Assembly (NCBI RefSeq): GCF_003334405.1
Contig: NZ_QOWM01000002.1
DNA length: 64,000 nucleotides
Source: Escherichia coli
GTDB lineage: Bacteria > Pseudomonadota > Gammaproteobacteria > Enterobacterales > Enterobacteriaceae
Direction: 5' to 3' (one strand)
The position numbers were made by a program, and so were the translations under genes. The notes below the pieces were generated by a model. That model had not been told where the DNA came from. It saw nothing but the letters and a program-made list of their open reading frames with translations, and made no database searches. Within the stretch, counting starts at the first letter, position 1, and every line of letters starts with the position of its first letter. Positions 4,736-5,132 of the stretch are shown in pieces.

Positions 4736-5132
4736 AATGCTTCCTGTGAGGCGAAAATTATCGTTATAGGACGTTTGGGAAACGTCTTTTACCTGTCTGT
4801 GGCCATCCTCTTATAAGCAAAAGTAGTGCCAGCTTTTGCGCACGATTTCGCGTCGCAATAAGCTGAGTGTAGACAGGAAATAATAAAAACAGCGCCCCGC
4901 AATGGTGCGAAAATGAAACATGCGCCACATTTTGGCGCAAAATATTTACGCGTGTTTTACTAAGCAGAATAATGATTGTTAGCGTGAGTATATTTCTGGT
5001 GGGAAGTGTGAAAATTAAATTGATGCGTTATTTCGAAAGCAGCGAAATAACGCGATGTAACATGCTAAATCAGCAGGGAATTACCCAGCAGAATATAGCA
5101 ATATTTTATCTTATGGAGAGATACTGTATCGT

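Follow-up and report, generated by a model that had tools for sequence, protein, structure and literature searches.

Gene content of the yhdV-yhdW region

The analyzed window is a stretch of 64,000 nt from an Escherichia coli contig (NZ_QOWM01000002.1), which matches strains such as 300709 at 100% identity over 801 bp. The gene order is the opposite of that on the K-12 map: yhdZ, yhdY, yhdX, yhdW (minus strand), a 430-bp spacer, yhdV, acrF and acrE. The genes yhdX, yhdY and yhdZ are located downstream of yhdW. The palindrome analyzed here, hereafter site A, is situated in the yhdV-yhdW spacer. The features of the region are listed in Table 1.

Table 1. Features of the yhdV-yhdW region and their coordinates in the window.
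Feature	Position	Strand	Basis or remark
yhdW, substrate-binding protein of the YhdWXYZ polar amino-acid ABC transporter	3710..4735	-	intact 341-aa ORF
Sigma-54 promoter yhdWp, CTGGCACTACTTTTGCT	4816..4832	-	GG 4830-4829, GC 4818-4817; perfect -24/-12
Inverted repeat TTGCG...CGCAA	4836..4858	-	abuts the -24 element of yhdWp
Conserved block TTCCTGTCTACACTC	4865..4879	-	between enhancer and promoter; preceded by a T-rich tract, 4880-4890
Site B, predicted canonical 17-bp NtrC box, CGCACCATTGCGGGGCG	4893..4909	-	12.1 bits, centre ~-96
Site A, the palindrome; proposed promoter-distal NtrC site	4921..4939	.	sequence, half-site scores, conservation
Intrinsic terminator of the upstream gene yhdV	5133..5164	-	9-bp GC-rich core stem, then T-run

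The yhdW gene is intact here, whereas the annotation of K-12 MG1655 treats it as a pseudogene. When K-12 was evolved in nitrogen-limited co-culture in a published experiment, it gained 1-bp and 5-bp deletions at 3419095-3419105, inside the yhdW pseudogene; these deletions might restore its reading frame.

The 5'UTR of yhdW harbors a hairpin of its own on the minus strand at 4758-4786, GACGTTT-CCC-AAACGTC (4786-4770). Next comes the near-invariant ATAACGATAA (4767-4758), and the sequence at the Shine-Dalgarno site (CACAGGA) is CA-rich. When the 70 distinct orthologous leaders were folded one by one, a hairpin was found at the same place in nearly all of them. The stems differ among orthologues (GGCGTTT/GAACGCC, GGCACC/GGATGCC and GGCGTG/CACGCC), which looks like compensatory change. 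The hairpin at 4758-4786 has no match in Rfam; it is possibly a conserved leader element or an sRNA target.

At the other end of the spacer, the terminator of yhdV folds at -18.3 kcal/mol (z = -4.1) and has UUUUU after the stem. As yhdV has this terminator of its own, the palindrome is not needed for yhdV termination.

The palindrome and inverted repeats in the window

Site A has the sequence TGCGCCACATTTTGGCGCA, in which two perfect 7-bp arms flank a 5-bp spacer, as the sequence-only reading had described it. It lies 186-204 bp upstream of the yhdW ATG (position 4735, minus strand), in agreement with the approximately 185 bp given earlier, and its assignment to the yhdW promoter region also holds; it is located about 100 bp upstream of the sigma-54 promoter. 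In the yhdW sense it reads TGCGCCAAAATGTGGCGCA, and its centre is at about -125 relative to the predicted transcription start.

Perfect inverted repeats are common in this DNA. The window contains 16 perfect 7+5+7 repeats, where first-order Markov random sequences give 3.7 ± 2.0; with spacers of 0-10 it contains 116 perfect repeats, where 48 are expected from such sequences. The pattern of the palindrome itself, with at most two mismatches, has two matches in the window against 0.59 expected, and 11 of 100 shuffles equal that number. The symmetry of the palindrome alone is not beyond chance. What makes it non-random is its placement relative to the sigma-54 promoter and to a second dyad, together with its conservation across genera, both of which are described below.

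Several other repeats were observed. A perfect inverted repeat with 11-bp arms, GCGTTATTTCG-N7-CGAAATAACGC, occupies 5025-5053 in the same spacer and exceeds site A in both length and strength (-13.9 kcal/mol, z = -3.4). Of the loci fetched, only K-12 was found to have the two arms intact, and E. coli E69 retains one arm only. Elsewhere in the window there are four perfect 19-bp palindromes with the core CAGAC-N3-GTCTG (54877-54895, 55639-55657, 55717-55735 and 62015-62033; for example, CGCCAGACATTGTCTGGCG), two of them between ORFs and two inside one 375-aa ORF.

The sigma-54 promoter and the region between it and the palindrome

The promoter yhdWp lies 89 bp downstream of the proximal edge of the palindrome, in the orientation of yhdW, which is within the approximately 70-150 bp expected for NtrC enhancers. 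The same 17-mer is the sigma-54 ChIP-seq site OS34 assigned to yhdW by Bonocora et al. (PMC4591121), and the yhdW -24/-12 sequence has been described as a perfect match to the consensus (PMC7045595). Each of the 79 loci whose upstream sequence is long enough has the motif TGGCAY-N5-TTGCT, at a distance of 91-115 bp from the downstream ATG. Judging from the -12 GC, transcription is predicted to start near 4805, giving a 5'UTR of ~70 nt. A promoter scan found no sigma-70 promoter running through the palindrome.

Two further conserved elements are located between the putative enhancer and the promoter. The columns of the block TTCCTGTCTACACTC are conserved at a level of at least 90% across most genera, which exceeds the conservation of the NtrC boxes, and the window holds no further copy of the block. 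We recognised no known consensus in it (4865-4879), and inspection by eye revealed no good match to the IHF consensus between enhancer and promoter; the block is possibly a site of DNA bending or of co-factor binding. The inverted repeat at 4836-4858 has conserved ends and an interior that varies both in sequence and in length, with three core positions pairable in 84-95% of the sequences and no T-run on either strand. The corresponding segment falls into two length classes that differ by about one helical turn, 32-34 nt (Escherichia and Citrobacter) and 43-45 nt (most other genera).

Conservation of the palindrome among relatives and E. coli strains

We aligned the 200 bp upstream of the promoter from 80 orthologous loci of Escherichia, Citrobacter, Enterobacter, Kosakonia, Cedecea and other Enterobacteriaceae. 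The alignment consists of discrete conserved blocks amid variable DNA. One of them, TTTTGC.C.....TGTGGC..A.GTT, covers the palindrome and is conserved at a level of at least 90% among about 55 distinct sequences; another, TTYGCACCA.....GGGCG.T, is located 30 bp downstream of the palindrome block and is conserved as well.

The perfect palindrome is found only in E. coli proper, with one to three arm mismatches in E. whittamii, in a divergent genome labelled E. coli and in all other genera. Perfect symmetry over all 19 bp thus belongs to E. coli proper and is superimposed on an older, less symmetrical conserved element. None of the seven arm pairs shows compensatory change among the 55 distinct sequences, and the dyad positions pair in 80.3% of cases in the 19-bp register, compared with 80.2% in shuffled columns and 79.2% when the register is slid by 2. 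This lack of compensatory arm changes argues for a protein-binding site and against a hairpin; a conserved core without such changes is as expected for a site read by a protein.

Within the species, 4,197 of 5,356 complete E. coli genomes (78%) carry the 60 bp with sites A and B unchanged, compared with 3,291 of 5,204 (63%) for the adjacent 60 bp. Strain M7638 has two differences, one in the palindrome spacer and one in the upstream flank, and both of its arms are intact.

Comparison of sites A and B with NtrC boxes

The published NtrC box is the 17-bp TGCACCAnnnTGGTGCA (PMC8743547, PMC4987338). We compared the yhdW sites with ten K-12 Ntr promoter regions (glnA, glnK, glnH, gltI, rutA, hisJ, argT, nac, astC and patA), in which nearly all strong consensus matches have the 17-bp spacing; yhdW is exceptional in having two NtrC consensus matches at N7 spacing. 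A weight matrix was built from 16 boxes of the K-12 Ntr promoter regions, the training scores being 9.6-21.3 bits.

By this matrix, site B is the third best 17-mer in the 64 kb. Its orthologs in the 80 sequences score 9.0-16.6 bits (median 12.4), and its right half, RGGGCR, is similar to that of the glnHp2 box TGCACCATTCTGGGGC. By its sequence, site B is canonical as an NtrC box and is conserved as such in all genera. Two NtrC-like dyads elsewhere in the window, the 17-bp TGCGCTACCCTGGCGCA at 21325-21341 (16.5 bits) and the 15-bp TGCATCATTGGTGCA at 18181-18195 (18.7 bits), fall inside csrD and accB by collinear mapping to strain 300709 and are therefore probably due to chance.

Site A behaves differently. 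Its half-sites, TGCGCCA/TGGCGCA, match NtrC half-sites but are separated by 2 bp more than in the box. Read in the 17-bp register (4939-4923, TGCGCCAAAATGTGGCG), it scores 8.5 bits, with a median of 5.65 over the genera; as this is under the weakest training box (9.6), site A falls short of a canonical box. When the half-site weights are applied at the +2 spacing (19 bp, N7), it reaches 16.9 bits, the best score of that class in the 64 kb, although this 19-bp score is not conserved (3-5 bits in Citrobacter). At the same time, positions G2, C3, C5, G15 and C16 of the 17-bp reading are invariant across genera and agree with the canonical register except for one mismatch that is always present (TGTGGC for TGGTGC). 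The pair count is consistent with this, dyad symmetry across genera being equally good in either register. Site A is therefore a conserved non-canonical element with NtrC-like half-sites, made perfectly symmetrical in the +2 register by E. coli. The failed 17-bp test weakens the claim that the palindrome is a canonical NtrC box, but not its role in an NtrC enhancer.

The sequence-only reading had suggested that the same palindrome be sought elsewhere; neither the 64-kb window nor the ten K-12 Ntr promoter regions contained another one. Its relatives in the latter are 17-bp NtrC boxes and not the same 19-bp palindrome.

The centres of the two sites (4930/4931 and 4901) are 29-30 bp apart, about three helical turns, which puts the sites on the same face of the helix, and this offset is the same in all genera. 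Two sites about three turns apart upstream of a sigma-54 promoter are the layout classically associated with cooperative binding of NtrC and assembly of its oligomer. The glnAp2 enhancer is similar in having two dyads about three turns apart (32 bp at glnA compared with 29-30 bp at yhdW), TGCACC/GGTGCA-type half-sites, NtrC on the region in vivo and a sigma-54 -24/-12 promoter; its boxes lie about 82-114 bp upstream of the -24 element and the yhdW sites 70-100 bp upstream of theirs. The difference is that both glnA sites are 17-bp boxes (TGCACCAACATGGTGCT and AGCACTATATTGGTGCA), whereas at yhdW only the proximal site is one. Compared with the glnA boxes, the arms of the palindrome are 2 bp further apart, and G replaces A at box position 4 in both halves. 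The candidate boxes of glnH and astC resemble the palindrome in their right halves, TGGGGCA (glnH), GGCGCA (astC, TGCGTCAGAATGGCGCA) and AGCGCA (glnH, TGCACAATTTTAGCGCA), but, unlike site A, they all have the 17-bp spacing.

Published evidence for NtrC regulation of yhdWXYZ

Brown et al. (PMC4066584) reported a 16-fold NtrC ChIP-seq peak for yhdWXYZ in nitrogen-starved cells. The genes yhdWXZ are members of the NtrC-3 iModulon (PMC11748552), and the yhdWXYZ operon has been described as NtrC-regulated (10.1101/770727). In vitro genomic SELEX with NtrC alone (PMC8743547) did not report the yhdV-yhdW spacer; that experiment recovered only 7 of the RegulonDB-listed NtrC targets.

The ChIP-seq loci (Table 1 of PMC4066584) lie about 0-85 bp upstream of the glnA, glnK and yhdW start codons, which at glnA is downstream of the known NtrC boxes. 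Since the peak is a region-level result and the loci are off the known boxes, sites A and B are indistinguishable in these data, which are unfit for placing sites. A full-text literature search for the site sequences returned no paper, and the sites may already be named in older work or in RegulonDB.

Alternative explanations for site A

A different protein might bind site A beside NtrC at site B, such as a second enhancer-binding protein (for example ZraR) or a co-regulator (for example Lrp), so that two signals would meet at yhdWp. In many genera the core TTTTGC.C.....TGTGGC..A.GTT is a poor NtrC box in both registers, and it reaches past the box, with conserved bases beyond any NtrC reading of site A (A at 4921, GTT at 4919-4917). 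According to a 2026 preprint, which cites Rome 2018, yhdWXYZ is regulated by ZraSR; PMC8249747 describes the 2018 work as ChIP-seq. ZraR (HydG) has two sites of the type CGAGTAAAAATGACTCG about 32 bp apart in the zraP-zraS spacer, which serve sigma-54 promoters. Their geometry, CGAGT-AAAAATG-ACTCG, equals that of GCGCC-AAAATGT-GGCGC in the palindrome, with 5-bp arms and a 7-bp A/T-rich spacer. The ZraR half-sites, CGAGT/ACTCG, are, however, unlike GCGCC/GGCGC, and the window contains no ZraR-type box with at most three mismatches, nor is there a GAGT-N7-ACTC with at most one mismatch near yhdW. In addition, ZraR bound only zraP/zraSR in genomic SELEX, and its direct targets by ChIP-exo are only zraSR, zraP and mgtA. 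Lrp has been reported to bind and activate at yhdW. The half-sites of site A are NtrC-like, which argues against a different protein. Lrp sites, moreover, are A/T-rich rather than GC dyads, which counts against Lrp at site A. On balance, we regard binding of a different protein at site A as unlikely.

A related proposal concerns the register. Site A could be a dedicated 19-bp-register site, used either by NtrC in an unrecognised +2-bp mode or by a second enhancer-binding protein or co-activator, for example ZraR; we give this rather little credence. If NtrC did use a 19-bp register, box scans fixed at the 17-bp spacing would miss such sites. If a second protein such as ZraR bound site A, the region would be a composite enhancer, in which one sigma-54 promoter integrates nitrogen and envelope-stress signals.

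It is also rather improbable that the palindrome is functionless as such, with only site B, and perhaps the TGC/GGC core, being of importance and the perfect symmetry in E. coli having arisen by chance. Perfect 7+5+7 palindromes are indeed common (16 in the window), the perfect symmetry is lineage-specific, being restricted to E. coli proper, and the central pair is unpaired in 44 of the 55 distinct sequences. Against this, both arm cores reach at least 90% conservation across genera, unlike the upstream DNA that flanks them, no genus departs from the distance of three turns to site B, and the changes in the sampled E. coli variant are in the spacer and the flank, the arms being kept.

The palindrome is very unlikely to act as an RNA hairpin, that is, as a second terminator or an attenuator for transcripts running from yhdV to yhdW: a simple scan rates it as terminator-like on the minus strand, which is the yhdW-sense strand (7 pairs, 5 of them GC, folding at -11.6 kcal/mol), and its GC-rich 7-bp stem, 5-nt loop and T-rich 3' side resemble a Rho-independent terminator, but the fold is no better than that of shuffled sequences (z = -1.33; 20 of 200 shuffles fold as well), covariation is absent (pairing equal to that of shuffled columns), the T-rich tail TGTTTCATTTT after the stem is interrupted, yhdV already has its strong terminator, and the Rfam search of 4650-5250 gave only two sub-threshold chance matches, neither at the palindrome.

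A CRP site, AAATGTGGCGCATGTTTCATTTT, was considered by eye and rejected: its left half, TGTGG, is fair, and its right half, TTTCA, is a poor match that is not conserved, with TTGTA or TTGGA in other sequences.

A putative two-site NtrC enhancer

The palindrome had been proposed to be an operator for an unidentified regulator. This is supported in part: the palindrome is most likely a site bound by a dimeric regulator. The operator part of the proposal is not supported, since the palindrome is located about 100 bp upstream of a sigma-54 promoter, where enhancer sites lie. Nor is the regulator unidentified, because NtrC has been reported at the promoter region in vivo and the operon is NtrC-regulated. 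There is indeed no regulator gene adjacent to the palindrome, as had been noted; this is irrelevant, since the likely regulator acts in trans.

We consider it reasonably probable, although far from certain, that the palindrome is the promoter-distal NtrC element in a pair of upstream activator sites serving the sigma-54-dependent yhdWXYZ promoter. Under nitrogen limitation, phosphorylated NtrC (GlnG) would bind the canonical box B (4909-4893) and cooperatively occupy site A, about three helical turns further upstream. The dimers on A and B would then nucleate the active NtrC oligomer, which would reach the sigma-54 holoenzyme closed complex at 4832-4816 via DNA looping and spend ATP to open the promoter, thus switching on the amino-acid scavenging transporter. 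In this scheme, the promoter, the geometry and conservation of the two sites, the presence of NtrC on the region and the NtrC-linked expression rest on the present analysis or on the cited papers. We infer that NtrC, and not another protein, contacts site A, as well as the register that is used (17 or 19 bp) and the cooperativity.

That the promoter is NtrC-dependent was already known, and the 2-bp-wider spacing of the distal site is the one mildly surprising point. The proposed two-site NtrC enhancer gives a conserved dyad a plausible role in a promoter already known as sigma-54- and NtrC-dependent. It also defines the candidate sites exactly, as 4939-4921 and 4909-4893, for a transporter of growing interest in the context of antibiotic homeostasis and gut colonisation.
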